64,000 bases of DNA. Origin: Schmidtea polychroa. Taxonomy: Eukaryota. The position numbers and the translations under genes are program-made. A model generated the notes under the pieces. It had not been told where the DNA came from. It worked only from the letters and a program-made list of their open reading frames with translations, and did no database searches. The stretch is taken from positions 2,170,001 through 2,234,000 of the forward strand of contig CM097888.1 of NCBI GenBank assembly GCA_044892525.1, read 5' to 3'. Positions 29,801 through 49,000 of the stretch are shown piece after piece (position 1 is the first letter of the stretch; each line of letters opens with the position of its first letter).

Positions 29801-32800
29801 GTCCTGAAGAAGTTTTTCAACCTTGTGATATGGTTGATTGGTATAAGGAAAAGATTTTAGAATCAGATATTAGTAATAAAAATGATTACATCTGTGAAGA
29901 TGAGGGGCAGGCAGAGGCGATTCAAGTTTTATTCTCTAATAAACCTGAAGATGTTTTACATTGTGATTTACTTCCTAAAGATAAAAAGAATTTAGTTATA
30001 TTTAATGATGTTGTTAACATGAAAAATCAAGAGATTCAAAAGAGTTACTTTACAAGAGGAAGACATAATAATTGTAATGTTATTTATATATCTCAAACAT
30101 ATTATGCTTTAGATAAAAACTCTATAAGAAATAATTCTAATTGTTTTATATTTTTTAAATTAGATCGCCGTGATAAGAATATGATTTATAATGATTTATT
30201 TTCAAATGTTGAACCTGATAAGAATATGTTTGATATGTTTGTTGATAATCATTGGAAAGAAAAATATAATTATATTTATTTGGATAGAGAAGAAGCTGAA
30301 ATATGGAAAAGTTTGTTTTAGGGCTTGTCGACTTAAAAATCTGTTTTCTGTAACTCATTATTATAAAATCTACCTAATATTTTTTCATTATTTAAATCAA
30401 TGATGCTATATGTTATTGGGGTTGTATAATGTATTTTATTTATAATAAAAATTTCATTTGTCCATTTTGCTGTGAATCCTTTTTCAAATTTATTTTTATA
30501 TTTAAATATTCTTACTCGGTCACCAATTTTAAACTTTGGTTTTTCAATAACATCATTTTCAACAGGATTTATGAGTTCCAAAGGATTCAAGGAAGCATTT
30601 AAAGGTGTTAATTTTATAGAACTATGTACATCATTATTATATTCATTTACAATCTTTTGTAACAATTCATTGTTCCATTTTTGTTTTCCAATAGCAGTAA
30701 AATATTTCCACATTTTATTTTTTAATGTTCTATTTAATCTTTCAACTACGACTGCTTTTCCTTCGTTTTCTGTTGAATATAATTTAATATCATTTTCATT
30801 TAAAAACTTTGTAAAAACTTTGTTATAAAATTCTGTTCCTTTATCACACCATAAATATTTTGGAATTCTTTGATGTTCTTCAAATATATTTTCAAATGCT
30901 TCTGTAATGGAATATCCTGTTTTATTTTCTAAACACCTTGCAAAGGCAAATCTTGTATATAAATCTATTACTGTTAAAATTATTTTATATTTTTCAGGGT
31001 CTGATGATTTGGTTGGCATAAAGACTAAATCAGCAGACCATGTTTGATCTTTTTCATGTACTTGAACTTTTAAATATTTTTTATTTTTTCTAAATTCATG
31101 GTGTAATTCGTTGGCATATTTTATTTGTGATTCTGTTGGGGTTAATAAACTAGTCTTGGATATATTCTCGAGGGATCTTTCAGCATCTGCTTGTTCAATA
31201 ATCTTTTTATTAGCAACATCTTTTGCTTTCCTAGGAAGTCTTGCACCCATGGCGATCGGACTGTGTCCTAAGCCTATGAAAATTTTACCTTTCATTGCTA
31301 ATTTAACTAGAGCTCTTTGAATCTTTTCTTGGGTTGATGGATTTTGTATATTATTTAAATCATGTATTAAATTAACATCTGCAACATGTCTATCTTTAAG
31401 ATCTTCTGAATTGTAAGCAATATCATGTTTTAAAGCTGCTTGATCAATTCTATTTGTTGGTTCTTCTCCTTGTTTGGGATTATTATTTTCATCTAATCTA
31501 ATCTAATATCTAATCTTGTTCCTGGCCCAGTATAATTGTGTTTAAATAAATGTCTTTCACCTGGATATTTTTCTGTAGTAAAAGGTTTTAATATTGAAGA
31601 TGTTGTTTTTGAAGATTGCAAATCACCTCCAGCTCGTGGAATTAGATCACCTCCTGTATGTTTTTTAGTTTTTAAATGACTTGCTTTATGATGTCTTGTA
31701 ACTTGACAATTACAACTTTCACATCTCCAATATTTATTTAGAGACATTTTAAAATGTTAAAATATCAGGGATTATATCAAGAATCTCCACTAACATTTTC
31801 AATAATTGAAATCTTTCCACCATATAATTTCATTTCTATTTTCTTTTCTTCTAATATTAATGTATATACTTTAGCTTTGAAATTAGAATCCTTTGTTACA
31901 TGAAGTGTAACATCAACATTATTTATGGCTAATCTATCATCTTGATCTGATACATTTATACAAAATATAGAATATAAATTTTTGAAATCTTCTAAACTTA
32001 ATTGCGGTTCAACTTTGAAATCATAACATGTTTCAATATAATTTAGATATGGGAATATGTTTTCATTATTTTCAATATTAAATTCCATTCTATTTATTGG
32101 ATAATAAGAACTATTTAATTGAATTTGGATTGTTTTTAAATTATCATCTCCAATCTTTTGAATAAATAGATTGTTATTTTTTTGGAAAGATGAATCTGTT
32201 TCTTTGAATCCAATCAAGATATACCTTGGTCGGTATGCTAAATTTGCTACCTTTATGGAATATGTTGAACCCTCTGTCATACTAAATTCACTACAGATTC
32301 TATTTAAATAATTTACATTTATAGACTTGTTGGAATTTAATCTTTCAAGGAGTTTGATTTCAGAATGTGGGTTTAATGTCCATTCAGGTATATGCAATTC
32401 AAGTGTTGATAATTTTAATTTAGCTTTTGTATCTGCAGCTCCATAGAACAATCTTTTATCACCTTCTACTCTATTACAAACTAATTCTATAAAAACATTA
32501 TGAAGTATACGATTATAGTTTTGAAGGAATCCAAACAAGTGTTTTAATTCAAAATAACCTTCAAATTTTTTAGATTTATAAAGTTCAGCTCTTTTATAAT
32601 AACCATAATTTATATCTAAACCATCTTTATCTAAATCTCCTTTATTAACATCAGGAATCCAACCTGTTAATTCACCATATTCGTTTTTATAATCACAACC
32701 AGTCAAAATAAAATTTAACATTGTAGAATATACTCCCGGATGCAAAACAGTTTCAATTTCTGATGATCCTAGTTTTAATCTCATGTTGGAGAATAAATTT

Positions 32801-35800
32801 GGAAAGAAATTATTTTCTAGGGTTATATCTTTGTTTGCTTCAATTTCTAATTCGATTTTATAATATAATTTAGCATTACAAATATCTATTGGGTTTGATG
32901 TTTGAAGAGATTGAAAAACTATATCACCCCTACGATTTAAGTTTGCAATCGATCCTGACGTAGGGGATATTTTGCGCACTGTGAAGTATCTACCAAATCA
33001 GTACTCTCATCAAGAGCGATCGAAAATGCTTCAAAATCTCCAGCCTTTTCAATAAATTGTTTTTCACATTATCTGCTAAATCGGTTATTCTGCTTGCAAC
33101 TGTATTAGAAGACAGACTTATGCTTTCGAATAGTTTCTTTTTATCAGGAATTAAAATTTCCCTGGCCTTCAAAAAACATTCTTTTATGAATGGACCTTCT
33201 GTGAAAGGTCGCGATGATTCAGCTATCATCAGGCTTAGCTCAAAACTTGTTTTTACTGAATTTTCTGCAAATTGGCTTAAATTCGAAAAAAAGTTTCGTT
33301 GCTTATCAAATTCTATTTTAAGCTTGTTAACCTTTTCATCTCGAATTTTTCCAGTATATTTATCATATTTTTCACGATGCATAGTGTCGCAGTGCCGGCG
33401 AAGGTTGAACTCCTTTGGTACTGCGATAATCTGCTGGCATATAAGGCACTGAATTTTATCTCTCGCCTCTGTGAAAAAATATAAATTCTCCCACTTCTCT
33501 TGGAAAACCCTTCTTTCATCAACGAGTTTTCTTTTTCTAGATAACAAAGTCATTTTGTGATGGGTATAAAAAATTTTAAATATGCCAATTATTATTTGTT
33601 GATTGAAATAACATTAAATTAAAATAAACAAAAATTTAAATTATGTAAAATATATGTATTTTTAATATAACTTATATTTTTTTAATTTAAATAATTTAAA
33701 TAATAAAATCAATAATTTTTAAAATAAATAAACTGTTTTCGATAAGATTCATAAGAAAGACGTAATAAAGCCATTATTAAATTGTACTAGACGTCATATG
33801 TATAAATAAAAATAATTAAAAAGATTAGTTTTAATTTATACAGCTAATTATGATTTAAATTGTTAAAGAAGTTTGGTTAAATTACAAATCTATGTTTTTT
33901 CGTTGCGGGCCGCATGCGGCCCGCGGGCCGCGTGTTTGAGACCCCTGATCTAAAAGATTACAAAAAAACTAAATTCATAAACTTGAAATACCTCTTGCTC
34001 GCGTCTGTGTGCGCACACAGCCAAAAACAAAGAAAAGAAAAGTGCACACAGACGCGAGATCAACTAACAGCCCAACACAAAAAATTACATTGCTCGCGTC
34101 TGTGTGCGCACACAAATTCATCACACAATACAACGCGCACACAGACGCGCATTGAGCTAATAATTCACCATACAGATATATTACCATCTACCTCATACCC
34201 AACGTATAAAATGAAGTTCGAGACAATGCCACCCTTGGGTACATCAGTATTGGAGATGGTGTCGAAATATCCATTTAGCACATTGGAACGGCTAAAGGAA
34301 GAGTATAAAGATGAAATAAAATCAGAAAATGACCAAGATAGTGATGATCAACAAAAGTTCAGAGATAATATCAGAGGAATCTCAACAATATTAATGGTCA
34401 ATATGGGTAAAAAGACTTATAAACCTACGATTAAATTAAAAGTTAACAGGCATACGGTACATGCCATTATTGATTCAGGATCAGATTTGACATTGATCGA
34501 AGCAAATTTATTAAACGAAAAAGAATTACAAGCAATAGTGCCGACATTAACTGTGGCATCGGGAGCAAATGGACAACCTATCAATGTTATCGGAACATTA
34601 GATTGTGAATTAAGGTTGTGTGATCAAAAATTTAGACACGATATAAAGGTCACTAGACAATGTATGGCAGAATGTATCGTGGGAATGGATATATTGAAAA
34701 AGTTAAAAGATATTGTATTCGATTGTGCAACAGGTGAATTAGTGAAAATGACGGGTAGAAAACGGAAAACCTACAGTGTGAATGTAGTGTTTTTGGATAG
34801 AACGGTGACAATACCACCGAGGACCGAAACAGTTTGTTTCGTAGCAACACATAAGAGGTGGAAGGAGATGTTATTTTCGAACCGAGTGAGCAGTTCGTAA
34901 CTAGGTATAAAACACCTATGGTGCAAAACTTGGCAACAGTACGGGGAGGAAGGATCCCGATTAGATTAACGAATCTAGCGAGTAAATCATTGAGATTATA
35001 CCCAGAAACTAGAGTGGGTAAAGTAATACAACTATCTAACATGCAGAAAGAGTCTGAATCGATATTATCAGTAGAAGAGGATGAACGAGATCCTGATATC
35101 GAATATTACGACGCACCGAGCTGCGATAGTAAAGCCTTATCTAGAAAAGAGAATATCAGAGTTAATCAATTGTTACGTAAATATGACCAAGTTTTCGCAA
35201 AGCATGAATATGACTTAGGGCAAGTTAATATCTTAGAGCATGAAATTAAATTAACAGAAAATAAACCGATAAAAATACACCCGTACAGAATACCTCAAAG
35301 TATACAAGGGTCAGTAGACAAACAAATCAAATTAATGCAAAAATATAATATAATCAGACCCAGTAAATCTCCTTATTCCTCACCTTTGGTGGTTGTAGCT
35401 AAAAGAGACGGCTCAGTAAGATTATGCAATGACTATAGGAAATTAAATGAACAAACAGTTAGTGATAATCACCCGCTACCTTTGCTAGATTACATTTATG
35501 ATAAAATGAAAAATTCAAAGTTGTTTACTGTGATGGATGCACAGAAAGGTTTTTATCAAATAAAGATGAGCGAAGACTCAATTCCTATGACAGGATTTTC
35601 TACAAGTAATGATCACTTTGAATACTTAGTAATGCCGTTTGGATTAAAAGGAGCCCCTCCAACTTTTCACAGGGCAATGAATATCATGTTGATGGATGCA
35701 CATCACGCAATGGTATATATAGACGATATTATCATCTTCTCGGAAGATTTAGATAAACATTTGGAACATCTTGAGGACATTTTCAAAAGATTGATTATGG

Positions 35801-38800
35801 CAAATCTGAAAGTAAAGCCAAGTAAATGCAAATGGGCAGAATCGGAAGTGATTTACGTAGGGCATGTAATATCACACGATTGCGTAAGACCAGATCCGGC
35901 TAACACGGATAAAGTAAAGAATTTCCCACAACCAGTGAATGTAAAACAAATCAAAGGATTTTTAGGATTGACGGGATATTACCGGAAATTTATACGAAAT
36001 TTTTCAGCAATTGCTTTTCCTTTAACTACCTTAGAAAAGAAAGGTATAAAATTTTTATGGGGAGAAGACCAGCAACAGGCATTCGATAAGTTAAAAGATG
36101 CATTATGCAAACCACCAATTCTACGATTTCCAGATTTTAAAAGACAATTCATTGTGATAACCGATGCATGCACAAGAGGTATAGGTGCAGTTTTGGGACA
36201 GAAAGATGAAATTGGCGATGAATACGCAGTAGCATATGCAAGTCGTGGATTGAAGCCACACGAAAAAAGTTATGCTGTAATAGAATTGGAAGCATTAGCA
36301 TTAGTGTTTGCAGTGGAAAAATTTAGTCATTACCTTTGGGGCAGAAAGGTAATTTTCTATACGGATCATAGACCATTGCAATGGCTACTAAAACATAGAG
36401 ACGAAGCATCAAAATTAGTAAGATGGACATTGAGATTACAGCCATATAATATCGAAAATGTATATCGTAAAGGTAAAGCTAATGGTAATGCAGACGCATT
36501 ATCACGAATGGAGCAAGAGCCTGAGTTAGAAGATATAAAGGAAGGAAGATTAGAAGGGACAATCTTCATGCTAACAAGAGAGGCTAACACTTTGAGTGAT
36601 TTAGTAGAGGCTCAGAAAAATGATGACGAGATCAATATGATCAGACAAGCTATAGAAGCAAAGGCCATACCAAATGAATTTCAGAAATATTGGGAGAAAC
36701 ATAAAGATAAATTCATATTGGAAGGTCTAATCAAATACGTTGAATCAAGGAATAATGTAATATTAGTGCCAAAGAAATACAGAGAATCACTATTATTACA
36801 ATACAACGATGGAGCACTGGGAGGACATCTCTCAGCTAGACACACACTATCGAGATTAAAAATGAAATACTTCTGGCCATATATGAAAGATGATGTTAAA
36901 AAGTGGTGCCAATCATGTAAGATATGTATAACCAGAAGGAACACAGGTAGAAAACCACATGTTCCATTGAAACCAATGCCAGTACCGTCCTCGCCAATGG
37001 AGATGACTGCTATGGACGTACTAGGGCCGTTTAAAGAATCGAAGATGGGAAATAAATTTATCATAGTATTTTGCGACTACTTAACGAAGTGGCCCGAAGC
37101 ATTCCCAATTCCGAATCATAAGGCAGACACAATTGCCAGAATCTTTGTAGAACAAATTGTATTTAGATATGGTGTTCCGACAAAATTGCTTACCGACAGA
37201 GGAAAGGATTTCATGAGCAATTTGTTAAAAAGTATAAATGATTATTTTGGTATTTTAAAGTTAAATACCTCACCATACCACCCACAGACGGATGGATTGA
37301 TAGAAAGGTTCAATGGAACCTTGGCAAACATGTTATCATCATACGTAAACTCAGGTCAGGCGGACTGGGATGTGCACATACCATCATGTTTGTTTGCGTA
37401 TAGAAATGCTGTTCATTCAGTAACAGGAGAAACACCTTTCTATTTGATGTATTTAAGGCATAACAAGATGCCAGTGGATCTTATATTTTATCCGAAAGCT
37501 TCACAGAATTGTGATGAGGGAAATTACTTATTCGAGATGAGAGAGAGAATGCAAGAAGCCTGGGAGAAAGCAGGTTTGAACATTCGTTATAACCAAGAAA
37601 CAATGAAGGAATATCATGATCGCAAGGCAAAGGATCATGGATTTTTGGTTGGAGATTATGTCATGTTAGAGGGACATTACAACAAAAAAGGTTTATCTCC
37701 AAAATTAATGAGAAATTACAAAGGGCCTTATCAAATTTTGAAAGTCACAGAAACCAATTTAGTCTTGCAGTTAGTGGCAAAGAGAAAAGCAGAACCGATC
37801 ATGGTTCATGCAAACAGATGTAAAAAGTTAGCCCCGCCAGAAAAGGAGAAACCAAAATCCGATATTGATGAATTCAAAATAGATAAGAAATCAAAAAAGA
37901 AAACGTTAGAATCATATAAAAGTATCCTAAAGGGACAACCAGAACGATACCCTTTTCGATCTCGGCAAATCCCAAAAACTGTTACATTTCTAGCAGTGAT
38001 TAGTTGTGTTATGATCATTGGACAAGCATTCGAGGTATTTACACCTAAAGCCAGTCAACATCCAGATATCGAATATCAACGAACAGATAGAGCATTCAGA
38101 TTTCATTTAACGAATATACAATGGCATAGATATGATCTATATTTGGTAGCTGCTGAAAGAGGGATATCATTTCACTTGAATACATGGGATCGAGTAAAAA
38201 TAATAGAGGGACTTATGCCGAATACAAGTTATCTATTAGAAATCAAGACATTTTTTGCAGACCCAAATGTTTTTGCAGACGAGGGAGATTGTGTAGATAA
38301 AGCAGCATGGAATTTGAAGACTGCAAAATTTACCAAAAAAGTAGAGATTTCATATCTCGGGCAGATAGTAAGACTTACTCATCCACGGTGGAAAAGAAAT
38401 GACACATCTTCCACTCACGATTGGAGGACGAATAATAAAATTGCACTAATCGTCATATTAGAAAATGACCAGCGAGTCGAGAGATTAGTGCTCAATCATG
38501 CGTATCTAAGTAGAAGATGGAAAATCAAACCAGATACCGTGACAAAGGCGAATATTTCGTATTTGGAATTTACGGAGAGAACCGGTTGGTATACAATATA
38601 CCAAGAAATAGTAAATCTAATACCTCACACAAAGGGAGAACTAACTAGCAAAGAAGGAAAGGCTAGATTAGTGAGTATTCCTGGTTGTAAAGGAATAAAT
38701 GCTTTGGATCGGTTTAGTATTAGAAAGGTAGCGAGTGTAAAACAGCCCCGCATAACTAAATTAATTAATAATTGTAGTTGTCAAAATACGTTAAAGGGGA

Positions 38801-41800
38801 CAACGAGAGATAAAACGCCAACTTAGCTATTGTTAATTATGATAGGGGGAGTAATTTGCATGATTTTAATTTTGATATTAGCCACCCTATGGATGTTTAG
38901 ATTAAACATGCGGGATATTCGTTATTGGGAAAATATTTACGAAACCGAGGTATAGGGGAAAAGTCTCACCATATACTAGGAAGTGTAAATATATATAGTC
39001 ATTTATTTTATATGTTATTTATATTAGTATTTAGACTAATGTGGGCTCAAATGAGCATCTGTAAAATCAGACATCAGCGTATGTCGACTTTGGTTACCCT
39101 GCGAGGGTCTATCACGAAAGTGATAAACGCTGTTAATTATTTTATTTTTAGAAAAATGAATTATAACAGAGAACCAAAGCCACCAGTCAAAGCAAATCGA
39201 CGACACCCATTGGCAACGTACAATTCCCAGACTCGAGTTGAAACTGAAGTGTATAGCACCTATAAAGAAGAGTATGTATATCGGTTCATCGGAACCACGG
39301 TCGCAGCAAAAATGAATCACCTCACCTCAAACTATTGGTATTATCCCAGGAGAGTGGATATTCCAAACGATTTCAAATTCCCAGGAGGGCCTCATAGGCA
39401 AATGATGATAACGGTTATAAATAACCAAGGTAGATTAAAATTGGCAGAACTATGTAGGGAGTATGGTTCATGTCCGAAATTGGAAAATATTTGGATCCAT
39501 GCGATCAATAGGCCATTTACTGTGCTTATGGCGGATTAGAGTTACCTGTTGAATTAGAAAAACAGTGTACTCTGGAGATATACCACGCTGATGGACGAGA
39601 ACGGAAGATTATGATCCAGGCAGCGGCAGTGGATACCATAATTGTAGTAGAAATCTTAAACTTCAGGAAGCCATACGCTATAGTTAGGAAAAACGAGCCA
39701 ACTTGGATTTATAATGTAAATGAAGCTGATATACAGCAGTGTAAATCATTTGTGAGGAAGAAGTTAACCAAAGCCGAGGAGGACGAGGCTACAATTTTCA
39801 TATCGGCAGGTTTTGCCAAATCCCGAATCGAATTGAAGGAGACAATTATCCAAATCGTAATTATGGATATGAGAGGAAATAATTTACTGAGTGCGGTAGT
39901 GACTCCCAGAGACCCTGTAAAACACTACCAAACGCACCAATACAAGTTAAAGGAACCAGATATTAAAGGAAACCTCGACGAAGATGATTGTTATCATCTG
40001 ATAAGAAAGATCTGTGATAAGAAAATACTTGTAGGTATTTTGCTTAAAGATCTGACCTCGGTAGCCAATCTACCAGTGCAGCGGATATTGGGTATCCGTG
40101 ACCTTTCTGCAAATAAACTATTGGAAACCAGAGGAGTCCCAAAGATTCATGGTCATTACAGATTGGGATTCCTGACAAAGACTTTCCTACGTACGGTTCC
40201 CGGAGAGCCAAGGAATTTAGTGGTCACCAATGAGGCACTGGCGATACGTGCGGTTTATTTACATATCAGAAACGAATGGTTAGACCATATCACGATACCC
40301 CAGGAGGAATTCACTTCTGCAACTACAGCAGCGATAGTTGAACAGGAAATGACGCAAAAGAGGAGATTACCCGAGCAACCATCTACATCAGAGCAACCCC
40401 AGCCTAAGAGAAAATCACCTGTGGATCTACCACCGCCTCCAGCTATATCTATTGGAGAAGAAGATGAATATGAAACATGTGCTAGTGAAATGGAGACAGC
40501 AAAATCACCTAAACAATCATCAGGAGCTGCCTATCAGCCAAAAGATAAACCGGATAATGCGGTCAGAAAAGAAAATCCAAAAGGAGGCAAGGTGAAAAAG
40601 ATGTTAAAGAAAATGTTACTCATAAAAAGAGACAAGTCGAAGCTAAAGTTGAAGAAAGTTGTTAAACCGTCGGAAGGAAGAGACACCCAGCAGTATGGAA
40701 GATAAGAATAATAAACCTCAAAAGATATTCAGCGAACCAGATGATGACATTATGGAAGTTGCCTTTCAACCTCCGGTTAAGGAGATGCAGGAAGCAATAA
40801 AGGTTAAATCTGAACCTGTGGTAAGGCAGAAAATGTTAAAGATTGCCAAGGAGAATATCATCAAGAAACCAGTTTCGGTTGATGTGGACGGTTTCGAACC
40901 AATGTGGTACAAACGTCCGGATAGTAAATGGAAACCCAGAGCTAAGGAGTATGACTGCCAACCAGTCACGAGAATGGCAGTCAATAATAATCAAAAATAT
41001 GATGTTTATGACGTAGACGGGATCCCTTACGTGGTGTCTACAGTCATATTAACGAGTGCTCTGGATGGTAAGCCTTTGGCAGTGAGTTTTGAGCCAGAAG
41101 TCTTACAGAAGAGGAAAAACAAGTTGTTGCAGCAATACGTCGTTGCCAATAGCTACAGCACAAAGGAGCTGCACCTTTACAAAGTTCCCGACCAAGATCC
41201 CGACGATCTGGATATCTAATCCGAGAGCGTTGCCACCCAACATGTGTCGTCGAATTCAAATGTGTATAAAATGACTTAACTATTATTTGATTTGTGCTAT
41301 CCAGTGTTTTGACATTTATTATTTGTGATTGGAAACATTCATTTTGTGTTTTGTCTTATTTGATTAATTTTTATGTTTTATTGTAATACTGTTTACCAAA
41401 AGCCTTTCTTTAGTCTTGTTTTTGTCTTGTTTTCGAGACGAAAATTTTTTAGGGGGTAAGACTTGTTAGGGATAGGCCTGGGGCCTTGACTGTAAAATAA
41501 ATAAAGAATTACTATATTTAGAAATGGTATAAATAAAATAATAAAGAATTACCGAAAATAAAATATAGAGTTAAATAATTACTATAATTTGATATATTTG
41601 ATATTACTATTACTATATATAGTAATTATAAAATTGCTATTAATATAATAAATAATTAAAATATGATATAAATACTGGTTCAAAACGAGAACCAGGGGAG
41701 AAGAATTTGGACGATAAAATTGACAAGAAAGTGGGACGGAAAAACATTGAGACAATAATTTAGAAGATTATTTGATTATCATTGTAAAAAAAGAAAACGT

Positions 41801-43874
41801 GATTAAAGAATCACTGTGTTGATTATAATTTAAGAAGTTCAACATAAGTCTAAATCAAAGAAAACGTGATTAAAGAATCACTGTGTTTATCAAACACCAG
41901 ACGACATTCCGATTTAAATTTCGGATCGATTTCAAAGTTGAAAATTGGCTATAAATTGCCAAACAGAATAAACAAGAGTCAGTGAGAAAATCTCTAGAGA
42001 AAAAAAATTGGAACAGATTTGTGAACGAAGAACAGAAAAGGAGCCATTAATTTAGACAAGGTAAAAGGAGTTCAGTATTTGTGTTGTGTAAGGATAAATT
42101 ATTATCCTTGTGAAGTGAAATAGTTAAAATAAAGCGAACACAAAGCACAGACAGCGGCTTTCGTGTTACCTGGTAGCCCCAAAATCAGCCCTCTTTCTTT
42201 ACCGGCATCTTTTCAATTTATTTAGCGATCGTTGTGCTACACAGGAGCCATCGATTTCTTGCAGGCTGTGGTAAACAGTAAGGATTAATAAATCCGTTTC
42301 TCTTGTATTCTTTGCACATATATTATAAATGCCTGTTATAAATTATTAAATACATTTTTATAAAAGGAGAAAGGAGTTTTGTTTTTAATTCAGTGATTTA
42401 AACATACTCGCGCAACCACATTAAATATAACATATTTATATTTATTATTATTTATTTATCTTAATTAAATTATTGGAGTCATTGTGTTAAGATCTGTAGT
42501 CCCCGTTTTTTGATCTTAACACTATCATTTTATAACGATTTATACTGTTATATTGTATATTGAGCTCTAATTATTTAATTAAATTGTCTTTCCAAAGAGG
42601 ACCCAAAAAAAAGTTGAAATATCAACAAAAACAGATGAAAGGTGACCAAAAAATAAAAGATATTTCTGATATCATGTTTTACTTATTATAAATATATTAT
42701 TTCCCTTATTTCAGGACTAACATCAGAAGGAGTGATTCTAGTCGAGTGTACAAGTTGCAAAACTCTGAAACCAGTTCCACATGAAAGGCCACATTCCCGT
42801 ATATTTCTTTAAAATTTGATATTTGTTTCTATATTTTTTAAAATTATTATTTATTGATTTTAAATTAATTTTTTTGTAAAAGCTAATCTCAAGGTCAATA
42901 ACAACAAATCAAACTGATGATTTCATTGATTTCTTCTTTCGTGTTGATTGTTGGCCGTTTGTTTATGATGAGAATTGCATATTTGAATCTGACATTTTTT
43001 TGGATGTTTCCATTAACTGAGATTTTGATTGAAATATTTTTCCTTTTCTTAATTGGTTGACATTTTTGGAGATGTCTGTTTACCGAGGATTTTCCATCAG
43101 GATCTAGATGTTCTTTAACTGTTTGTTGCAAGGTCCTGAGTATACTTCCAATGTATATTTTCTTGCATACATTGCACGTGATGCAATAGACGATGTTTTT
43201 TCTAAAGCACATATCTTTCGGTGTCTGGCAGTTTTTCATTGTGCAATTGTTTTCTCTATTTGTGTTGTTTAATGTGTTNNNNNNNNNNNNNNNNNNNNNN
43301 NNNNNNNNNNNNNNNNNNNNNNNNNNNNNNNNNNNNNNNNNNNNNNNNNNNNNNNNNNNNNNNNNNNNNNNNNNNNNNNNNNNNNNNNNNNNNNNNNNNN
43401 NNNNNNNNNNNNNNNNNNNNNNNNNNNNNNNNNNNNNNNNNNNNNNNNNNNNNNNNNNNNNNNNNNNNNNNNNNNNNNNNNNNNNNNNNNNNNNNNTATC
43501 AGAAGTCCTACAGAAATCCAAGTACTGGATCTCCATTCTCGTCATTGGGATATTCATGCTTTTCGTCATCTTACTGCTGTTATATATGAATCGGTTATAA
43601 ATTTTGTTTATTCCCATAAATTAAAATAATATCTAGTAAAAATGGGACATCAAAATTTCAAATCAATTTCAACATTCCAAAAATGCCCAAATTTAGATTT
43701 CCTAGATTGAATTTTGACCAGTTTAGATCAAACTTCCCAAGAATGCGACTGAATGAGACATATGACGAGAATTCTCGCGGGAATTCGGAATTTGTTGAAG
43801 CGATCGAGCTGCCGGACACTGTCAATGAAGTATCATTTGATAACCCGATCTATGTTGCAGATTCCAGACAATGA
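14864..43874 (+). CDS. AMN: Amnionless-like type I membrane protein, multi-exon; internal exons only partly resolved
   Basis: Signal peptide exon 14864-14924. Exon 14968-15119 reads KLFLPNTNFANSNNWKEAQVPC (AMN: KLWVPNTDF..A.NW....PC). Exon 15171-15258 reads DFPINGEIIL. The exon from 15306 reads HWYNPFNW...VPSALDLVVFP. A TM exon ends at 43593 and the last exon 43637-43874 carries the FDNPIY endocytic motif. GT-AG introns of 43-51 nt keep the frame. Confidence 0.85.
16128..17459 (-). CDS. pogo/POGK-type DD35D transposase
   Basis: N-terminal Brinker-like HTH and CENP-B-type HTH; catalytic motifs NGDQTP, LVLDAFRCH and LQVMD with 35 residues between D2 and D3. Confidence 0.93.
   Translation of the reverse strand: MSSKRCSYTTGFKLMVIEAAERIGNRGASREYGLSEANVRHWRNNKNTLKECRSSTKAPGRGRKLFFPDVEKKLVEYVHERRFSGSSISTVEVRLKALELVKEMYPGSIFKASARWCQLFMKRNDISIRRRTSIAQRLPDDVENKLLDYQKYIINLRKRHEYPISCIANGDQTPLSFDIPSFQTLDFKGVKSVPIKTTGNEKNRFTVMLGAYGDGKKMPPYVIFKRKSLPKNIHWPAGMIVKAQENGWMNEELTKDWIKTIWCNDRKDEFRNSRRLLVLDAFRCHRMPCVKEILAKNKTDLVIIPGGMTGQLQVMDVVCNRPFKQEMRKRWNEWFFSGAPSFTASGNRRKVDLETICKWIQLSWDAVIEAIIIKGFKKCCLSNAMDGSEDDVIWQDDISDVGNEDDDMENELMFEEVDESIEIENLIKSEDENNDLCNEKNIL
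17519..17595. repeat. 16-bp tandem repeat (AATTTAATGTAATATA), about 5 copies
   Basis: Direct reading; lies in the 5' region of the pogo element. Confidence 0.85.
18488..18636 (+). CDS. AMN: AMN internal exon (5' edge in gap)
   Basis: KTFTRKFVEF...GNKCKKDYCVVNSNLQ resembles AMN RTFTR...EDC...GCVCGN; donor CAG|GTTAAA at 18636. Confidence 0.55.
18820..18914 (+). CDS. AMN: Probable AMN Cys-rich exon
   Basis: AAG|ATG acceptor and TG|GTGAGA donor; reads MVMNLIGCQMINMCRNQKLIPYKGPIGAQCK in phase with the previous exon. Confidence 0.45.
19351..19440. repeat. 35-bp tandem repeat running into a gap
   Basis: TCCAAATAAGAAATCCCAACAACCAATGAAATGCT, about 2.5 copies visible. Confidence 0.85.
21325..21553. 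mobile_element. hAT-type MITE
   Basis: TIRs CAGTGGCGTAACT / AGTTCTGCCACTG; perfect 8-bp TSD CTCATTAC at 21317-21324 and 21554-21561. Confidence 0.85.
21945..22209. mobile_element. hAT-like MITE
   Basis: TIRs CAGTGATTCTCAGC / GTTAAGAATCACTG; inner GCGGCACA/TCGGCACA motifs; flanked by a 6-bp direct repeat CTACAG. Confidence 0.7.
22362..22613. repeat. Imperfect inverted repeat starting AGTAGT and ending ACTACT; candidate Polinton terminus
   Basis: AGTAGTGTGTATATATACCCAACCCAAACAGCCCTC versus the reverse complement of 22578-22613, AGTAGTGTGTATATAGCCCTATCCCAAATAGCCCTC. AGTAGT is a common Polinton terminal sequence. Confidence 0.65.
23215..23296 (-). ncRNA. tRNA-like Pol III unit 1
   Basis: A box TAGCGCAGTGG (23289-23279), B box GGTTCAAATCC (23246-23236), T8 terminator (23222-23215). 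Cloverleaf stems are degenerate. Confidence 0.6.
23361..23543 (-). CDS. Small charged helical ORF (60 aa), probably of the Polinton
   Basis: ATG preceded by AAAA, as in the other Polinton ORFs; lies between Pol III units 2 and 1. Confidence 0.5.
   Translation of the reverse strand: MDELKERMRNELNEVKHKRMKRREEEPLEYIKELMVDNEKYRHFYMKAVDVADIRLKKMK
23708..23789 (-). ncRNA. tRNA-like Pol III unit 2 (tRNA-Cys-like 5' half)
   Basis: A box TAGCTTAGTGG, D-stem GCT/AGC, GACTGCA at the anticodon position, perfect T-arm AATGGG-TTCAAAT-CCCATT, T5 terminator. The anticodon stem is unpaired. Confidence 0.7.
23942..24023 (-). ncRNA. tRNA-like Pol III unit 3
   Basis: A box TAGCGGAGTGG, degenerate B box GGTTCAATTTT at tRNA spacing, T7 terminator. 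The 3' flank is homologous to that of unit 2. Confidence 0.55.
24050..25372 (+). CDS. Polinton-type major capsid protein (double jelly-roll); likely ATG at 24080
   Basis: Motifs LN..GDI, ENNFFPNLFS, HLFGF..NY.RIL.N..IEL, RPRYILIGF and FCINVSDQ; size and gene context fit. Confidence 0.85.
   Translation: MCVCKFYYIKMNNINLKIQEKNKLNLDYNKEFTHEIKKNDVLKISPTSGSIANLNRRGDIVFQSLQTSNPIDICNAKLYYKIELEIEANKDITLENNFFPNLFSNMRLKLGSSEIETVLHPGVYSTMLNFILTGCDYKNEYGELTGWIPDVNKGDLDKDGLDINYGYYKRAELYKSKKFEGYFELKHLFGFLQNYNRILHNVFIELVCNRVEGDKRLFYGAADTKAKLKLSTLELHIPEWTLNPHSEIKLLERLNSNKSINVNYLNRICSEFSMTEGSTYSIKVANLAYRPRYILIGFKEVDSSFQKNNNLFIQKIGDDNLKTIQIQLNSSYYPINRMEFNIENNENIFPYLNYIETCYDFKVEPQLSLEDFKNLYSIFCINVSDQDDRLAINNVDVTLHVTKDSNFKAKVYTLILEEKKIEMKLYGGKISIIENVRGDS
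25402..26816 (+). pseudogene. Zinc finger - PLA2 - retroviral-type integrase ORF, broken by a 5-nt insertion at 25642-25656
   Basis: C2H2 motif CESC..HHKASHLKTKKH; PLA2 motifs YTGPGT and DQAALKHDIAY; integrase WSADL / WCDKG / VVERLNRTLK (DD33E). Removing one ATTAG unit gives one open frame of 469 aa. Confidence 0.88.
26828..27625 (-). CDS. A32/FtsK-like DNA packaging ATPase
   Basis: Walker A GSSGCGKN, Walker B LVIFND, and the RGRH..NVIYISQ arginine finger/sensor motif. Confidence 0.92.
   Translation of the reverse strand: MDIWKPILNRHKSKFNNKVFPDNFRLLIVGSSGCGKNVLVLKMLLEDGFLDYNNLIFYSTTINQPELQLLKCGFENKLTKKAIIDIFKNQHRCPEEVFQPCDMVDWYKEKILESDISNKNDYICEDEGQAEAIQVLFSNKPEDVLHCDLLPKDKKNLVIFNDVVNMKNQEIQKSYFTRGRHNNCNVIYISQTYYALDKNSIRNNSNCFIFFKLDRRDKNMIYNDLFSNVEPDKNMFDMFVDNHWKEKYNYIYLDREEAEIWKSLF
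27641..28234 (+). CDS. pX/core-like structural protein with GKGLYLxP repeats
   Basis: EGGILPLAALIPAIIAGLSGAAGIA resembles adenovirus pX (GGFLPALIPIIAAAIG); three GKGLYL repeats. Confidence 0.65.
   Translation: MTTEESLQELINSNKNKSVVIDGKKYFIGKHVKEQVRAKIKEGGILPLAALIPAIIAGLSGAAGIAGGIATTVQKAKESQKTDLEKEKLQTEIDSMKKKGVSEGQKSVGKGLYLNPYQKVSEGQKSQGSCSVGKGLYLDPYKGRGLNDFLKNQISSSESLSSKDKDDLKKMCKSLKNGCLCKTKNGKGLYLKPWKEP
28257..28793 (+). pseudogene. Polinton ORF truncated at the fold-back; the last ~25 aa are read from the antisense arm
   Basis: The ORF crosses the junction at 28718/28719. Confidence 0.7.
28915..29508 (-). CDS. Mirror copy of the pX-like ORF
   Basis: Translation identical to 27641-28234. 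Confidence 0.65.
   Translation of the reverse strand: MTTEESLQELINSNKNKSVVIDGKKYFIGKHVKEQVRAKIKEGGILPLAALIPAIIAGLSGAAGIAGGIATTVQKAKESQKTDLEKEKLQTEIDSMKKKGVSEGQKSVGKGLYLNPYQKVSEGQKSQGSCSVGKGLYLDPYKGRGLNDFLKNQISSSESLSSKDKDDLKKMCKSLKNGCLCKTKNGKGLYLKPWKEP
29524..30321 (+). CDS. Mirror copy of the packaging ATPase
   Basis: Translation identical to 26828-27625. Confidence 0.92.
   Translation: MDIWKPILNRHKSKFNNKVFPDNFRLLIVGSSGCGKNVLVLKMLLEDGFLDYNNLIFYSTTINQPELQLLKCGFENKLTKKAIIDIFKNQHRCPEEVFQPCDMVDWYKEKILESDISNKNDYICEDEGQAEAIQVLFSNKPEDVLHCDLLPKDKKNLVIFNDVVNMKNQEIQKSYFTRGRHNNCNVIYISQTYYALDKNSIRNNSNCFIFFKLDRRDKNMIYNDLFSNVEPDKNMFDMFVDNHWKEKYNYIYLDREEAEIWKSLF
30333..31747 (-). pseudogene. Mirror copy of ZnF-PLA2-integrase, carrying the same 5-nt insertion
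   Basis: The same ATTAG x3 slippage is present; the proteins differ at two residues (EKH/ERH, PKK/PRK). Confidence 0.88.
31777..32973 (-). pseudogene. 5'-truncated mirror copy of the major capsid gene
   Basis: Lacks the N-terminal ~32 aa and abuts hAT sequence at 32974. Confidence 0.85.
32974..33947 (-). mobile_element. Truncated hAT element (Buster/SPIN, GTF2IRD2-like transposase), 5' half only
   Basis: TIR CAGGGGTCTCAAAC at 33947-33934 with the subterminal palindrome GCGGCCCGCGGGCCGC; flanking 8-mer has a central TA. The transposase reads RVFQEKW, CLIC...RRHCDTMH and, after a 1-nt frameshift, FSIALDESTDLVDTSQCA, where it is cut. Confidence 0.9.
34211..34900 (+). CDS. Gypsy aspartic protease region, frameshifted to pol near 34853
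   Basis: HAIIDSGSDLTLI and CIVGMDIL; adding 1 nt restores VATHKEVEGDVIFEP into the pol frame. Confidence 0.85.
   Translation: MKFETMPPLGTSVLEMVSKYPFSTLERLKEEYKDEIKSENDQDSDDQQKFRDNIRGISTILMVNMGKKTYKPTIKLKVNRHTVHAIIDSGSDLTLIEANLLNEKELQAIVPTLTVASGANGQPINVIGTLDCELRLCDQKFRHDIKVTRQCMAECIVGMDILKKLKDIVFDCATGELVKMTGRKRKTYSVNVVFLDRTVTIPPRTETVCFVATHKRWKEMLFSNRVSSS
34858..38826 (+). CDS. Gypsy Pol (RT, RNase H, integrase) with a C-terminal FN3-like extension
   Basis: RLCNDYRKLN, VYIDDII, TDA..GIGAVL, ELEALA, YTDHRPL, GH...C..C, AMDVLGP / TDRG / IERFNGTL. Confidence 0.97.
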   Translation: MEGDVIFEPSEQFVTRYKTPMVQNLATVRGGRIPIRLTNLASKSLRLYPETRVGKVIQLSNMQKESESILSVEEDERDPDIEYYDAPSCDSKALSRKENIRVNQLLRKYDQVFAKHEYDLGQVNILEHEIKLTENKPIKIHPYRIPQSIQGSVDKQIKLMQKYNIIRPSKSPYSSPLVVVAKRDGSVRLCNDYRKLNEQTVSDNHPLPLLDYIYDKMKNSKLFTVMDAQKGFYQIKMSEDSIPMTGFSTSNDHFEYLVMPFGLKGAPPTFHRAMNIMLMDAHHAMVYIDDIIIFSEDLDKHLEHLEDIFKRLIMANLKVKPSKCKWAESEVIYVGHVISHDCVRPDPANTDKVKNFPQPVNVKQIKGFLGLTGYYRKFIRNFSAIAFPLTTLEKKGIKFLWGEDQQQAFDKLKDALCKPPILRFPDFKRQFIVITDACTRGIGAVLGQKDEIGDEYAVAYASRGLKPHEKSYAVIELEALALVFAVEKFSHYLWGRKVIFYTDHRPLQWLLKHRDEASKLVRWTLRLQPYNIENVYRKGKANGNADALSRMEQEPELEDIKEGRLEGTIFMLTREANTLSDLVEAQKNDDEINMIRQAIEAKAIPNEFQKYWEKHKDKFILEGLIKYVESRNNVILVPKKYRESLLLQYNDGALGGHLSARHTLSRLKMKYFWPYMKDDVKKWCQSCKICITRRNTGRKPHVPLKPMPVPSSPMEMTAMDVLGPFKESKMGNKFIIVFCDYLTKWPEAFPIPNHKADTIARIFVEQIVFRYGVPTKLLTDRGKDFMSNLLKSINDYFGILKLNTSPYHPQTDGLIERFNGTLANMLSSYVNSGQADWDVHIPSCLFAYRNAVHSVTGETPFYLMYLRHNKMPVDLIFYPKASQNCDEGNYLFEMRERMQEAWEKAGLNIRYNQETMKEYHDRKAKDHGFLVGDYVMLEGHYNKKGLSPKLMRNYKGPYQILKVTETNLVLQLVAKRKAEPIMVHANRCKKLAPPEKEKPKSDIDEFKIDKKSKKKTLESYKSILKGQPERYPFRSRQIPKTVTFLAVISCVMIIGQAFEVFTPKASQHPDIEYQRTDRAFRFHLTNIQWHRYDLYLVAAERGISFHLNTWDRVKIIEGLMPNTSYLLEIKTFFADPNVFADEGDCVDKAAWNLKTAKFTKKVEISYLGQIVRLTHPRWKRNDTSSTHDWRTNNKIALIVILENDQRVERLVLNHAYLSRRWKIKPDTVTKANISYLEFTERTGWYTIYQEIVNLIPHTKGELTSKEGKARLVSIPGCKGINALDRFSIRKVASVKQPRITKLINNCSCQNTLKGTTRDKTPT
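38827..38955 (+). pseudogene. In-frame transmembrane helix and tail after the TAG at 38824-38826
   Basis: LLLIMIGGVICMILILILATLWMFRLNMRDIRYWENIYETEV*. Confidence 0.75.
38925..39539 (+). CDS. Gypsy accessory ORF, unknown function; true start uncertain
   Basis: 204-aa open frame inside the element. Confidence 0.6.
   Translation: MGKYLRNRGIGEKSHHILGSVNIYSHLFYMLFILVFRLMWAQMSICKIRHQRMSTLVTLRGSITKVINAVNYFIFRKMNYNREPKPPVKANRRHPLATYNSQTRVETEVYSTYKEEYVYRFIGTTVAAKMNHLTSNYWYYPRRVDIPNDFKFPGGPHRQMMITVINNQGRLKLAELCREYGSCPKLENIWIHAINRPFTVLMAD
39611..40705 (+). CDS. Gypsy accessory ORF: REX4/ISG20-like exonuclease fold lacking catalytic residues, plus a disordered tail
   Basis: IVIMDMRGNNLLSAVVTPRDPVKHYQT, KILVGILLKDL, IRDLS, RLGFLTKTFL, NEALAIRAVY...W. 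Confidence 0.65.
   Translation: MIQAAAVDTIIVVEILNFRKPYAIVRKNEPTWIYNVNEADIQQCKSFVRKKLTKAEEDEATIFISAGFAKSRIELKETIIQIVIMDMRGNNLLSAVVTPRDPVKHYQTHQYKLKEPDIKGNLDEDDCYHLIRKICDKKILVGILLKDLTSVANLPVQRILGIRDLSANKLLETRGVPKIHGHYRLGFLTKTFLRTVPGEPRNLVVTNEALAIRAVYLHIRNEWLDHITIPQEEFTSATTAAIVEQEMTQKRRLPEQPSTSEQPQPKRKSPVDLPPPPAISIGEEDEYETCASEMETAKSPKQSSGAAYQPKDKPDNAVRKENPKGGKVKKMLKKMLLIKRDKSKLKLKKVVKPSEGRDTQQYGR
40659..41219 (+). CDS. Gypsy accessory ORF, unknown function
   Basis: 186-aa open frame directly before the 3' UTR and PPT. Confidence 0.55.
   Translation: MLNRRKEETPSSMEDKNNKPQKIFSEPDDDIMEVAFQPPVKEMQEAIKVKSEPVVRQKMLKIAKENIIKKPVSVDVDGFEPMWYKRPDSKWKPRAKEYDCQPVTRMAVNNNQKYDVYDVDGIPYVVSTVILTSALDGKPLAVSFEPEVLQKRKNKLLQQYVVANSYSTKELHLYKVPDQDPDDLDI
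41464..42521 (+). repeat. 3' LTR, about 1058 bp
   Basis: Begins TGTTA directly after the purine tract AGGGGGTAAG and ends TAACA; contains TATA-like and AATAAA motifs. Confidence 0.75.
42895..43278 (-). mobile_element. Penelope-like GIY-YIG endonuclease fragment
   Basis: KNIVYCITCNVCKKIYIGS..RTL....KEH. Confidence 0.8.
43497..43593 (+). CDS. AMN: AMN transmembrane exon (5' edge in gap)
   Basis: YWISILVIGIFMLFVILLLLYMNR; the 43-nt intron 43594-43636 joins it in frame to the tail exon. Confidence 0.75.
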
Positions 43875-46093: not shown

Positions 46094-49000
46094 ATGAAAA
46101 ATACGAGATCATTGGAATTAAATCATATAAAATATGGGAATTTCAATGGGAATTTGAACAATAATAATAACAATGATAATAATTCATCAGATATTGATAA
46201 TTACATCTGGGCTTGCAATGACAGAGAAAGGTAAAATGCAATTAGGAAATAGTTTATCTAACCTGCTGAAATTAGAATTAGTATGCTTGGAAACGTTGAT
46301 AATCTGGCTGATATTGATAGAAGCGAGTTGAAATCCATCCAAAGCCAATTAGTAACCCTCGCAATTGAAGTAAATAAAAGACCAAAGTAAGAATAAAATT
46401 AATTTTAAATAAAATTTCTCTGCGGTTACAGATTAAATATTTGGCAAGAATTGAATGAGCATTTGAATCACATTTCAGCGCTTTCTGAAATGATTTTGCT
46501 CGATAAAAAGGTAAAGTTTAGAAATTTGAAAATTATTTTATTAATTAATTAAATTAATTAATTTGATTATCAATTATATAATTATTGATTATTATATCAA
46601 TTTAATAATGATATTATTTGCTTATCAAAATGATTATTACACTAAATTTATTCATGATCTTGTTGTGGAAACAAACTCAATTTTTTATTAATTTTAATTA
46701 TTAATTAATAATTATTTTTATTATTAAAATTAATTAATTATTCATTTATTTAGACATTAATTATTATAAAATTATTTTAACCACAATAATTATTATTAAA
46801 TTATTAATTAATTATTAATTAATTATCCAATTAATCAATCTTATTTTAATTAAATTGAATTAATCAAATCTTCTAATTATTTTAATTAAAAATCAAATTG
46901 ATTTCAGCTCTAAATAAAAATTTTTGTTAGTGCAAATGAGAAGCTTTTAAATTAATTTTAATTACTATTCAAATTTAATTAATTGTTTTTATTTTGATAT
47001 TTCATAATTCTGCACTTTCTTATAAGTTAAAAGTCGATTTTTGATAGGTTAAAAACATGCAGTATTCCCGAATATATACAATGCTGAAAAACATTATTCT
47101 TTTAAAAAGGTTTTGCTAGCTAAATCAAGGCATAATTATATTAATATCAGAAATGTATTGCAATATTCATATGAGAAACAGTTTCGAATCTTTGATCATT
47201 ATTCATCGTATTGACCAATTTGTATTTTGTAATTGACCAATCATTATTGACCAATCATCATTGACCAAACATCATTGACCAATCATTATTGACCAATCAT
47301 CATTGACCAATCATCATTGACCAATCATCATTGACCAATCATCATTGACCAATCATCATTGACCAATCATCATTGACCAATCATCATTGACCAAACATCA
47401 TTGACCAATCATCATTGACCAATTTAATTAATTGTTTTTATTTTGATATTTCATAATTCTGCACTTTCTTATAAGTTAAAAGTCGATTTTTGATAGGTTA
47501 AAAACATGCAGTATTCCCGAATATATACAATGCTGAAAAACATTATTCTTTTAAAAAGGTTTTGCTAGCTAAATCAAGGCATAATTATATTAATATCAGA
47601 AATGTATTGCAATATTCATATGAGAAACAGTTTCGAATCTTTGATCATTATTCATCGTATTGACCAATTTGTATTTTGTAATTGACCAATCATTATTGAC
47701 CAATCATCATTGACCAAACATCATTGACCAATCATTATTGACCAATCATCATTGACCAATCATCATTGACCAATCATCATTGACCAATCATCATTGACCA
47801 ATCATCATTGACCAATCATCATTGACCAATCATCATTGACCAAACATCATTGACCAATCATCATTGACCAATCATCATTGACCAATCATCATTGACCAAT
47901 CATTATTGACCAATCATTATTGACCAATAATCATTGACCAATCATCATTGACCAAACATCATTGACCAATCATCATTGACCAATCATCATTGACCAATCA
48001 TCATTACACCAATCATTATTGACCAATCATCATTGACCAATCATCATCATTTTGTGGAGTTGTAATTTGTAATAACCTGATTTAGGAAATTGTAATCGGT
48101 AGTAATTTGGTTTGTAAAATTGGAATTGTTAGGTTCGCTAGCACAGTGCACAATCTCGCTCCAAAAAATACTACGCGTATAAATAACTAAGATAATTCGA
48201 TTTCAACGATAAAATTTATTTTAAAATATAAATATAACAAATATGGTTTATATAATTTAAATAATCAAATCAATATTGCCGCAAAACTATAAAGCAAAGA
48301 CATCGGGTTTGTCCAACAGTTCTTGGATATTTCTAAGTTAGCGAGAGCTGGATTCTAATTTATCTACCGTTTCGCTCGAAAGTGAAAGGTAAGAGATTAG
48401 GGATTCCCAAAATATGCGCTATCGATTGCTACTAATAATCGGCAACAACGTTTCCTACAATCCTACCTTCTATAATTTTATAATAAACAATAAAAAAAAA
48501 CAGACAATTCAGTTTAACTAAAAAATTCTTGTCTCAAAACCCCAAAACTATATTTACAACGTATTCCTAGCAACTGTTTCAAATGGTTTAATCAAATAAA
48601 TTGACAGCCGTTTTCTGCTGGGTGAAACCCGGGTAACTATTCGGATAATCATGCAAGGTAAGTTAACTTCTAAAAAGCTAATACTTTTGTCTTTTTAGAT
48701 AATTTCCCCTGTATTTATTACAAATTGTACTTGGAAAGTATTTTTTTAAGTATTTTAAATAAGTATTAAAACATACTAAAACAAATTTAGTTTTATTTGT
48801 ATATTATTTAGTTTGGTTATAAATATTTAATTTAATTTACAACTGTCTATAANNNNNNNNNNNNNNNNNNNNNNNNNNNNNNNNNNNNNNNNNNNNNNNN
48901 NNNNNNNNNNNNNNNNNNNNNNNNNNNNNNNNNNNNNNNNNNNNNNNNNNNNNNNNNNNNNNNNNNNNNNNNNNNNNNNNNNNNNNNNNNNTAACCAAAA

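Follow-up and report, generated by a model that had tools for sequence, protein, structure and literature searches.

A Gypsy-type element was identified on the + strand of a 64-kb stretch of Schmidtea polychroa DNA (contig CM097888.1, positions 2,170,001 to 2,234,000; this whole stretch is called the window, and all positions are counted within it), at about 34.0-42.4 kb. Its Pol open reading frame (ORF), at 34855-38826, is 1323 amino acids (aa) long, and reverse transcriptase (RT), RNase H and integrase were identified in it by Pfam. Behind the integrase the frame stays open through the basic motif RYPFRSR, a hydrophobic segment and a further 265 residues, up to a TAG at 38824-38826. The locus raises the question of what this extension encodes, and whether it belongs to the element's family or to this copy alone. 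The extension, together with the sequence that follows the TAG, very probably represents a conserved trait of one clade, because the same architecture of integrase, signal-like segment, ectodomain, transmembrane (TM) helix and tail is found throughout that clade. The following parts were recognized in the window copy.

37981-38028, + strand: internal signal-like segment VTFLAVISCVMIIGQA; by inspection, the n-region is basic, the core hydrophobic and the residues at -3/-1 small
38029-38823, + strand: ectodomain, 265 aa, with four N-glycosylation sequons
38080-38330, + strand: FN3-like unit 1, limits approximate, with the signature IIEGLMPNTSYLLEIKT at 38200-38250
38386-38397, + strand: RWKR furin-type site, not conserved, with polar residues after it
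38518-38562, + strand: possible degenerate second FN3 signature WKIKPDTVTKANISY, at -0.4 bits no better than chance
38824-38826, + strand: in-frame TAG ahead of the TM helix
38827-38898, + strand: TM helix of 24 hydrophobic aa, best 21-aa Kyte-Doolittle mean 3.07
38899-38955, + strand: cytosolic tail of 18 residues with the tyrosine motif ENIYE and the end ETEV (WENIYETEV), stop at 38953-38955

Small residues at -3 and -1 are the rule for signal peptidase cleavage, and the signal and TM segments were assigned from hydrophobicity scans. The sequons are NTS, NDT, NIS and a fourth, NCS, at 38770. Judged from base composition, an open frame of 283 codons has a chance probability of p ~1e-10, and the open frame after the integrase is therefore not due to chance. 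All of the sequence features quoted in a first-pass annotation of this DNA were confirmed where it had placed them, and its proposal that Pol is fused in frame to a type I membrane module was borne out in the window copy and in the relatives. That annotation caught the module but not its being a family trait, nor the PDZ-type end, the other lesions or the exonuclease-like downstream ORF. Its suggestion of a splice acceptor at 37993, which would have allowed separate expression, did not hold up: 14 of the 222 YAG sites in the element are equally pyrimidine-rich, and splicing there would cut into the signal segment. This acceptor was dropped as unremarkable. The RWKR site is present as described, but among 11 relatives only one has R-x-[KR]-R after the integrase, and no hydrophobic stretch follows the site here; furin processing was also dropped.

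Relatives that share the module

Relatives were sought with the integrase region among proteins of 727-2316 aa. This search gave 270 proteins, and the best 120 of the 270 were compared. Eleven close relatives (P0003-P0013) scored 467-551 bits, and the next protein among the matches listed scored 325 bits. In the tree of 120 sequences, from which P0066 was omitted as too short, the 11 relatives and the window copy were monophyletic with a support of 1.0. The signal-like segment, ectodomain, TM helix and tail were in frame with the integrase, without a stop, in nine of the 11; the presence or absence of the extension in other copies was the test that the first-pass annotation had named. Another relative, P0003, ends early; on its contig (L001) the module is complete, with three FN3-type motifs, TM helix and tail in one frame. 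A single in-frame stop lies inside the second repeat of L001, and the third repeat, the TM helix and the tail lie beyond it in the same frame. Counting P0003 with its contig, the module is fused in frame behind the integrase in 10 of the 11 relatives. Contig L002 represents a twelfth member and has the signal and the first FN3-type motif before the contig ends, while L003, which lacks an extension after the integrase, falls outside the clade. An equivalent of the signal-like segment is present in 10 of the 11 protein relatives and in L002, and in most members its n-region is basic, its core hydrophobic and its -3/-1 residues small, as judged by inspection. Among the 109 other Pols, a hydrophobicity scan showed a TM-like segment after the integrase in one, P0028.

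The tails share their last residues. A class I PDZ ligand is a C-terminal S/T-x-V/I/L, and the end ETEV of the window tail satisfies this pattern and may act as such a ligand. Tails ending in T-x-V/L were found in 7 of the 9 complete tails of relatives versus 3 of the 109 other Pols (Fisher p 8e-8). With sister pairs merged and the window copy added, the count was six of eight, where 0.023 per tail is expected. Apart from this end, the tails of the relatives are dissimilar. Since the tail behind the stop of the window copy has the type of ending seen in the relatives, it was once part of the protein. This agrees with the first-pass annotation, which had placed the TM helix and tail after the TAG in the same protein, and with the nine relatives that are open from integrase to TM helix.

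Three ectodomain searches gave no sequence homolog except one bacterial repeat protein, as would be expected if a host exon or random sequence had been captured by the window copy alone and had come to lie in frame by chance. However, the same architecture is present in 10 of 11 clade members, whose sequences are divergent and whose tail end is conserved. Chance capture is left with scarcely any probability, and as an event in a single copy it is ruled out by the clade data.

Some observations on the members weigh against the overall reading given below. P0005 has no module in its ORF, and P0010 has the signal and TM helix but no FN3 motif. The PDZ-type end is absent from the tails of P0010 and P0011. 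No capsid domain was found in the proteins of the 11 relatives, and Gag was seen in no member.

Individual members differ in several other respects. P0010 is the most basal member of the clade; its ectodomain is short, Cys-rich and not of FN3 type, and its tail, 128 aa long, contains a PPxY motif. In P0012 a further signal-FN3-like-TM module, which includes a tyrosine motif, lies at residues ~45-245, upstream of the protease and in the same ORF as Pol; the enzymes of this protein would thereby be kept on one side of the membrane. Extra aspartic protease domains follow the integrase in P0005 (two), P0007 and P0009, and the protease of P0008 is doubled before RT. A C2H2-like finger is present in P0005 and P0008, and ankyrin repeats in P0009. 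Outside the clade, P0028 has a 920-aa extension after the integrase with its TM-like segment at the C-terminus. The contigs L001 (1-4655), L002 (1-1891) and L003 (1-2260) are eukaryotic retroelement contigs in bacterial genome bins of the GTDB set and probably represent contamination.

The decayed window copy and its TAG codon

The domain order protease-RT-RNase H-integrase of Ty3/Gypsy elements (Metaviridae) is present, and the remaining parts of the element and its upstream border are as follows.

32990-33947, - strand: hAT-type (Spin-doc zinc finger) transposon end, outside the element (Pfam zf-C2H2_12, E 8.4e-7)
34418-34708, + strand: aspartic protease domain (Pfam RVP, E 2.4e-8; tblastn of relatives), in ORF 33881-34900, the frame of which differs from the rest of Pol
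34837-34855, + strand: approximate protease/RT frame break
35398-35871, + strand: reverse transcriptase, YIDD present (Pfam RVT_1, E 2.7e-30)
36133-36447, + strand: RNase H (Pfam RT_RNaseH, E 7.8e-35)
36766-37284, + strand: integrase zinc finger and core (Pfam)
37636-37833, + strand: integrase C-terminal SH3-like (GPY/F) domain, GPY at Pol aa 957, SH3-like fold in the model
37945-37965, + strand: basic RYxxRSR motif at the end of the integrase, common to most relatives
41451-41460, + strand: candidate polypurine tract (by inspection)
41464-42432, + strand: candidate 3' long terminal repeat (LTR), TGTTA...TAACA, 969 bp (by inspection), no second copy in the window

The loss of its 5' part, the protease/RT frame break and the number of changed invariant columns mark the window element as a decayed copy from a Gypsy (Metaviridae) lineage. 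Gag and the 5' LTR are absent upstream, and their place is occupied by the transposon end at 32990-33947, which we take to be of hAT type partly from a terminal motif seen by eye. Neither a second LTR nor a sister copy of the element was found within the 64-kb window, and no tRNA gene was found in it. Four relatives (P0008, P0011, P0012 and P0013) match both the protease and the RT frame as single proteins, and the DNA of L001 is open from the protease through to RT. Because relatives carry the protease and RT in one frame, the frame break is probably a lesion. At Pol aa 651, in the integrase zinc finger, the window copy deviates at a position that is otherwise invariant in all compared relatives. 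Among 168 columns from RNase H to integrase that are invariant in nine relatives, the window copy differs at 16, while eight relatives differ at 3-8 and the outgroup P0010 at 15. The assignment to the lineage is further supported by the family profile, whose top match in PDB was Ty3 Gag-Pol (E 1.5e-160), and by the GPY/F module at the C-terminus of the integrase, as in Ty3/Gypsy. Troyka retroelements are described as having CG...CG termini and lacking the GPY/F motif and an envelope (PMC12440569); membership in this group was rejected, as GPY is present and the candidate LTR begins with TG. Membership in Burro was considered and then dropped.

The TAG at the border of ectodomain and TM helix had been read in the first-pass annotation as either a nonsense lesion or a readthrough site, and an alignment of sister copies at this codon had been proposed. 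A lesion in a decayed copy is the probable explanation, because nine of the 11 relatives have no stop from integrase to TM helix, the frame of L001 is open at this border and has its stop at another place, and the window copy is damaged at other sites. Programmed readthrough would produce a secreted ectodomain plus a rarer anchored form. The stop lies exactly at the border between the two, and its context is TAG-CUA; C at +4 after a stop is leaky. A hairpin directly 3' of the TAG had a z of -2.6 in one of three folding windows, but z was -0.21 and +0.92 in the two overlapping ones. Both members with DNA across the module, the window copy and L001, show one in-frame stop inside it; however, the stop of L001 differs in codon, place and context. 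Together with the uninterrupted relatives and the other lesions of the window copy, these differences make readthrough improbable.

The ectodomain and its possible role

The ectodomain is probably FN3-like, on sequence evidence that is weak but converging. The Leu...Tyr signature of strands E-F is the FN3 tyrosine corner. In an alignment anchored on the integrase, for which the motif was not used, the Leu of this L...Y signature was in register in 8 of 8 rows. The FN3-type signature occurred 18 times in 11 ectodomains, compared with 0.33 in shuffles. FN3-type motifs were present in nine of the 11 relatives and in unit 1 of the window copy; relatives carry 1-3 FN3-like units, and P0008 has a single unit plus a stalk. 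Unit 1 of the window scored 9.9 bits against a profile made from the relatives only, and 0 of 2000 shuffles scored as high. Thus, of the two FN3 signatures named in the first-pass annotation, the first was above chance, and the weaker second, with its negative score, was not. A profile of nine units (one per protein, from the 18) gave 26 matches in PDB at E up to 10. These were mostly FN3 proteins, with titin (3.6e-4), fibronectin, PTPRF, pikachurin, iHog and tenascin at the top.

Several results weigh against an FN3-like ectodomain. The unit-profile test and the motif count are partly circular, because the units were chosen by an FN3-like pattern that was written after the sequences had been viewed. 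In ESM Atlas, the top matches of the window ectodomain were all FN3 (score 0.88, recognition 1944), which serves as a lead only. With Pfam fn3, the window ectodomain had no match, two of nine units of the relatives matched at all, and the best of these reached 15.3 bits versus a cut-off of 25. The module as a whole, searched against Pfam, NCBIfam and PDB sequences, gave only a generic TM match and one row at E 0.95. Word-based searches with the ectodomain gave no match among 701 candidates of 727-2316 aa or 498 candidates of 154-492 aa. Against 1.84 billion representatives one match was found, to a bacterial FN3 repeat protein, whose E of 1.6e-9 is a sum over five repeats; a one-repeat profile gave only 14.5 bits. 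None of the searches with the ectodomain alone gave a retroelement homolog or a host protein homolog.

The fold check by AlphaFold and Foldseek, which the first-pass annotation had suggested, gave weak rows of FN3 type and no confident model of the ectodomain. From the single sequence, AlphaFold reached a pLDDT of 31. With eight sequences the ectodomain had low-confidence strands at a pLDDT of <50, and only the SH3 domain of the integrase was confident. Foldseek with the eight-sequence model gave no match at E 0.001. Seventeen of its 40 listed rows were FN3-type chains by title, all weak (E 0.1-0.3), and the rest were mostly SH3/KOW; the structural matches in VIA-align were taken up by the integrase SH3 domain. 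Ectodomains of the relatives compared in pairs scored mostly <10 bits. Against the whole-ectodomain profile of the relatives, the window ectodomain scored 10.2 bits, where the best of 1000 shuffles scored 9.4, and the hhalign probability was 2.9%. Since this similarity is marginal, the homology of the window ectodomain with those of the relatives rests on position, motif and tail.

If these assignments are correct, the internal signal would thread the ectodomain into the endoplasmic reticulum, and cleavage by signal peptidase would free its N-terminus. The TM helix would act as the anchor, with a lumenal, glycosylated ectodomain and a cytosolic tail, and the Pol enzymes would stay in the cytosol until released by the element's protease. 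The product would be a glycosylated type I surface protein with 1-3 FN3-like units, whose tail may bind host PDZ scaffolds and, in some members, also tyrosine-motif partners. Such an adhesion or receptor-like protein could set particle assembly at cell contacts, and the module could aid passage from cell to cell, e.g., from soma to germline, without a class I or III fusogen. The whole reading, role included, of a decayed Gypsy copy with a membrane-threaded Pol polyprotein and an FN3-like, PDZ-tailed, adhesion-type surface protein has in our judgement a slightly better than even chance of being right. An adhesion or receptor-like role is the most plausible one, because the module lacks the hallmarks of a fusogen. 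The envelope function and the origin as a captured host receptor that had been raised in the first-pass annotation are hypothetical, and no host protein homolog was found for the latter.

The same evidence bears on other roles. The surface protein might be a host-modulating decoy or signalling mimic that binds a ligand or receptor, or sequesters PDZ/SH2 proteins, and protects the cells carrying the element without being directly involved in transmission. In cytokine receptors, ligands are bound by pairs of FN3 domains, and many of the weak Foldseek rows are such receptors. The very fast divergence of the ectodomains resembles an arms race, accessory-type cargo is nearby (an exonuclease-like ORF in the window, the ankyrin repeats of P0009), and host-modulating domains are reported in Burro elements (PMC6431247). 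However, the module is in the env position straight after the integrase in 10 of 11 relatives, its strict fusion to Pol couples its amount to replication, and no host receptor homolog was found. We regard a decoy as unlikely.

A membrane tether or sorting tag, which would direct Pol and the assembly of particles to a membrane domain or to extracellular vesicles with the ectodomain as a folded passenger, would account for the conservation of topology and PDZ-type end but not of ectodomain sequence, and for P0010, which keeps signal and TM helix with an unrelated ectodomain and PPxY in the tail. Signal cleavage, however, would part Pol from the TM helix and tail, and both the variation in repeat number (1-3) and the two modules of P0012 suggest a role for the ectodomain, which makes a mere tether quite unlikely.

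The env position, signal, sequons, TM anchor and, in the window copy, RWKR would also suit a true fusogen of a new beta-sandwich type. Against it, no hydrophobic peptide follows RWKR and none is conserved within the ectodomains, the furin site is found in 1 of 11 relatives, and some ectodomains, such as that of P0008, are only a single unit plus stalk. Pfam matched neither the window module nor the 11 relatives to F, gB or Gypsy env, for F and gB at E up to 1-10. Among the 50 rows listed for the viral structure library there was no fusion glycoprotein, and nothing in that library matched at E 0.001, although such fold searches exclude no family. A fusogen of this type is very improbable. The contrast drawn in the first-pass annotation with the F-derived env of errantiviruses was borne out, as Pfam gave no match to F, the module is fused to Pol and the furin site is not conserved.

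Some known systems resemble the adhesion-type module in part. In BEL/Pao elements (Cer7-type), env is also in frame behind the integrase in one ORF; they belong to a different superfamily and their fusogens are phlebovirus- or herpes-like. Errantiviruses whose env is of F or HSV/gB type (HSV, herpes simplex virus) likewise combine a Gypsy pol with a following signal-ectodomain-TM glycoprotein in invertebrate animals (PMC13524379). Their env is a large class I/III fusogen with a furin site and a fusion peptide or loops (PMC13524379). The module described here has 1-3 FN3-like units, no conserved furin site and a PDZ-type end, and, where errantivirus env is a separate ORF expressed from a spliced mRNA, it is fused in frame to the integrase in the window copy and 10 of 11 relatives. 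Planarian Burro giant Gypsy elements have an env-like region in the polyprotein frame, with ankyrin and other accessory domains (PMC6431247), and an in-frame env is therefore not new. In Burro, env is of F-like type and sits between gag and pol, whereas the present module is FN3-like and lies after the integrase; the upstream module of P0012 is similar in position, before the protease, to the env-like region of Burro (PMC6431247). In the Vesta/Juno/TelKA elements of bdelloid rotifers, pol is followed by additional ORFs, among them DEDD exonucleases and small TM proteins, and a domain lies between the protease and RT; each ORF3 is an ORF of its own, of F-like, GDSL, DEDDy or coiled-coil/TM kind, and none is called FN3 in the descriptions drawn on here (PMC5408684).

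The functional model is taken by analogy from sORF2 of MDG1-group retrotransposons, a non-Env membrane protein that serves in direct cell-to-cell transmission (PMC11952523); models of non-standard membrane proteins in transmission have been put forward there and in PMC4402516. The sORF2 protein is short, FAST-like and encoded by an ORF of its own, whereas here an ectodomain of 200-400 aa (265 aa in the window) is fused to Pol. HTLV-1 Env similarly has a tyrosine motif and a C-terminal PDZ motif, which binds Dlg at cell contacts, on a retroelement surface protein (PMC3185783). It is an unrelated class I fusogen of a vertebrate retrovirus, and the likeness is an analogy only.

The errantivirus survey of Chary and Hayashi, carried out with F and gB baits, reported only F and gB env types, and neither 'fibronectin' nor 'FN3' occurs in its main text, supplements aside (PMC13524379). 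Literature on gypsy elements or retrotransposons gave no description of FN3 or a PDZ-binding motif, Repbase Reports, supplements and most subscription journals being outside its scope. An FN3-type, PDZ-tailed module is thus apparently undescribed as an env-like surface gene in Metaviridae. The env-like genes so far described from Gypsy elements derive from viral fusogens (F, gB) or code for tiny proteins of FAST-like type. A clade with an FN3-type, PDZ-tailed protein on its integrase would add a path by which adhesion domains of cellular type become surface proteins of retroelements, and surveys based on env baits would miss such a module. A polyprotein whose enzymes are cytosolic between membrane modules would also be unusual for Metaviridae. 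We tentatively suggest, at somewhat below even probability, an independent class of retroelement surface protein: an FN3-repeat mimic of adhesion receptors with a PDZ-binding tail, freed from Pol by signal peptidase, that forms a junction-like contact through which particles pass without a viral fusogen, some members having two modules flanking the enzymes. An adhesion-type module of this kind may be an undescribed way for retrotransposons to move between cells, and a clade that keeps it would offer a test of whether selection in a retrotransposon can favour attachment or junction targeting by itself, with no fusogen present.

Accessory frames and other features of the window

Three further frames lie between the module and the candidate polypurine tract.

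39156-39539, + strand: accessory ORF3, 127 aa from ATG, no family match
39512-40705, + strand: accessory ORF4, RNase T/DEDD exonuclease-like domain (ESM Atlas 0.94), then a charged low-complexity tail
40653-41219, + strand: accessory ORF5, no family match

A good candidate splice acceptor ends at 39151, just ahead of the ATG of ORF3. The three frames (39156-41219) overlap end to end in different frames and may be one accessory ORF with frame breaks. In ESM Atlas, ORF4 had 190 of 256 features, and 28 of its 30 matches were RNase_T; it had no match in Pfam and no sequence match in PDB. Its first acidic catalytic motif is apparently absent by eye. DEDD exonuclease cargo in retroelements has been described (PMC5408684, PMC6338049), and ORF4 is therefore a known kind of cargo.

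The region 24041-32997 contains a Polinton/adintovirus-like gene cluster, in which four genes were identified by Pfam.

24041-25372: double jelly-roll capsid
25647-26816: PLA2-like plus integrase
26828-27634, minus strand: A32 ATPase
27605-28234: protein X-like

This cluster is a 4255-nt inverted duplication with 99.8% identity and arms 288 nt apart, either a foldback or an assembly artefact. An uninterrupted pogo/Tigger-type transposase ORF (BrkDBD, HTH_Tnp_Tc5, DDE_1) is present at 16128-17498 on the - strand, and a GIY-YIG-like, Penelope-like fragment spans an N gap at 42895-43620 on the same strand. Dynein heavy chain exons (DHC_N2) lie at 58463-58807 and 63267-63944 on the + strand, with a 22-nt tandem array between them at ~59480-62000. 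An open frame of 273 aa at 9981-10802 (+ strand) has no Pfam match and resembles a secreted-protein domain. A 14-nt tandem array with a 449-nt exact duplication lies at 46972-48000. The window is AT-rich and contains nine N gaps.

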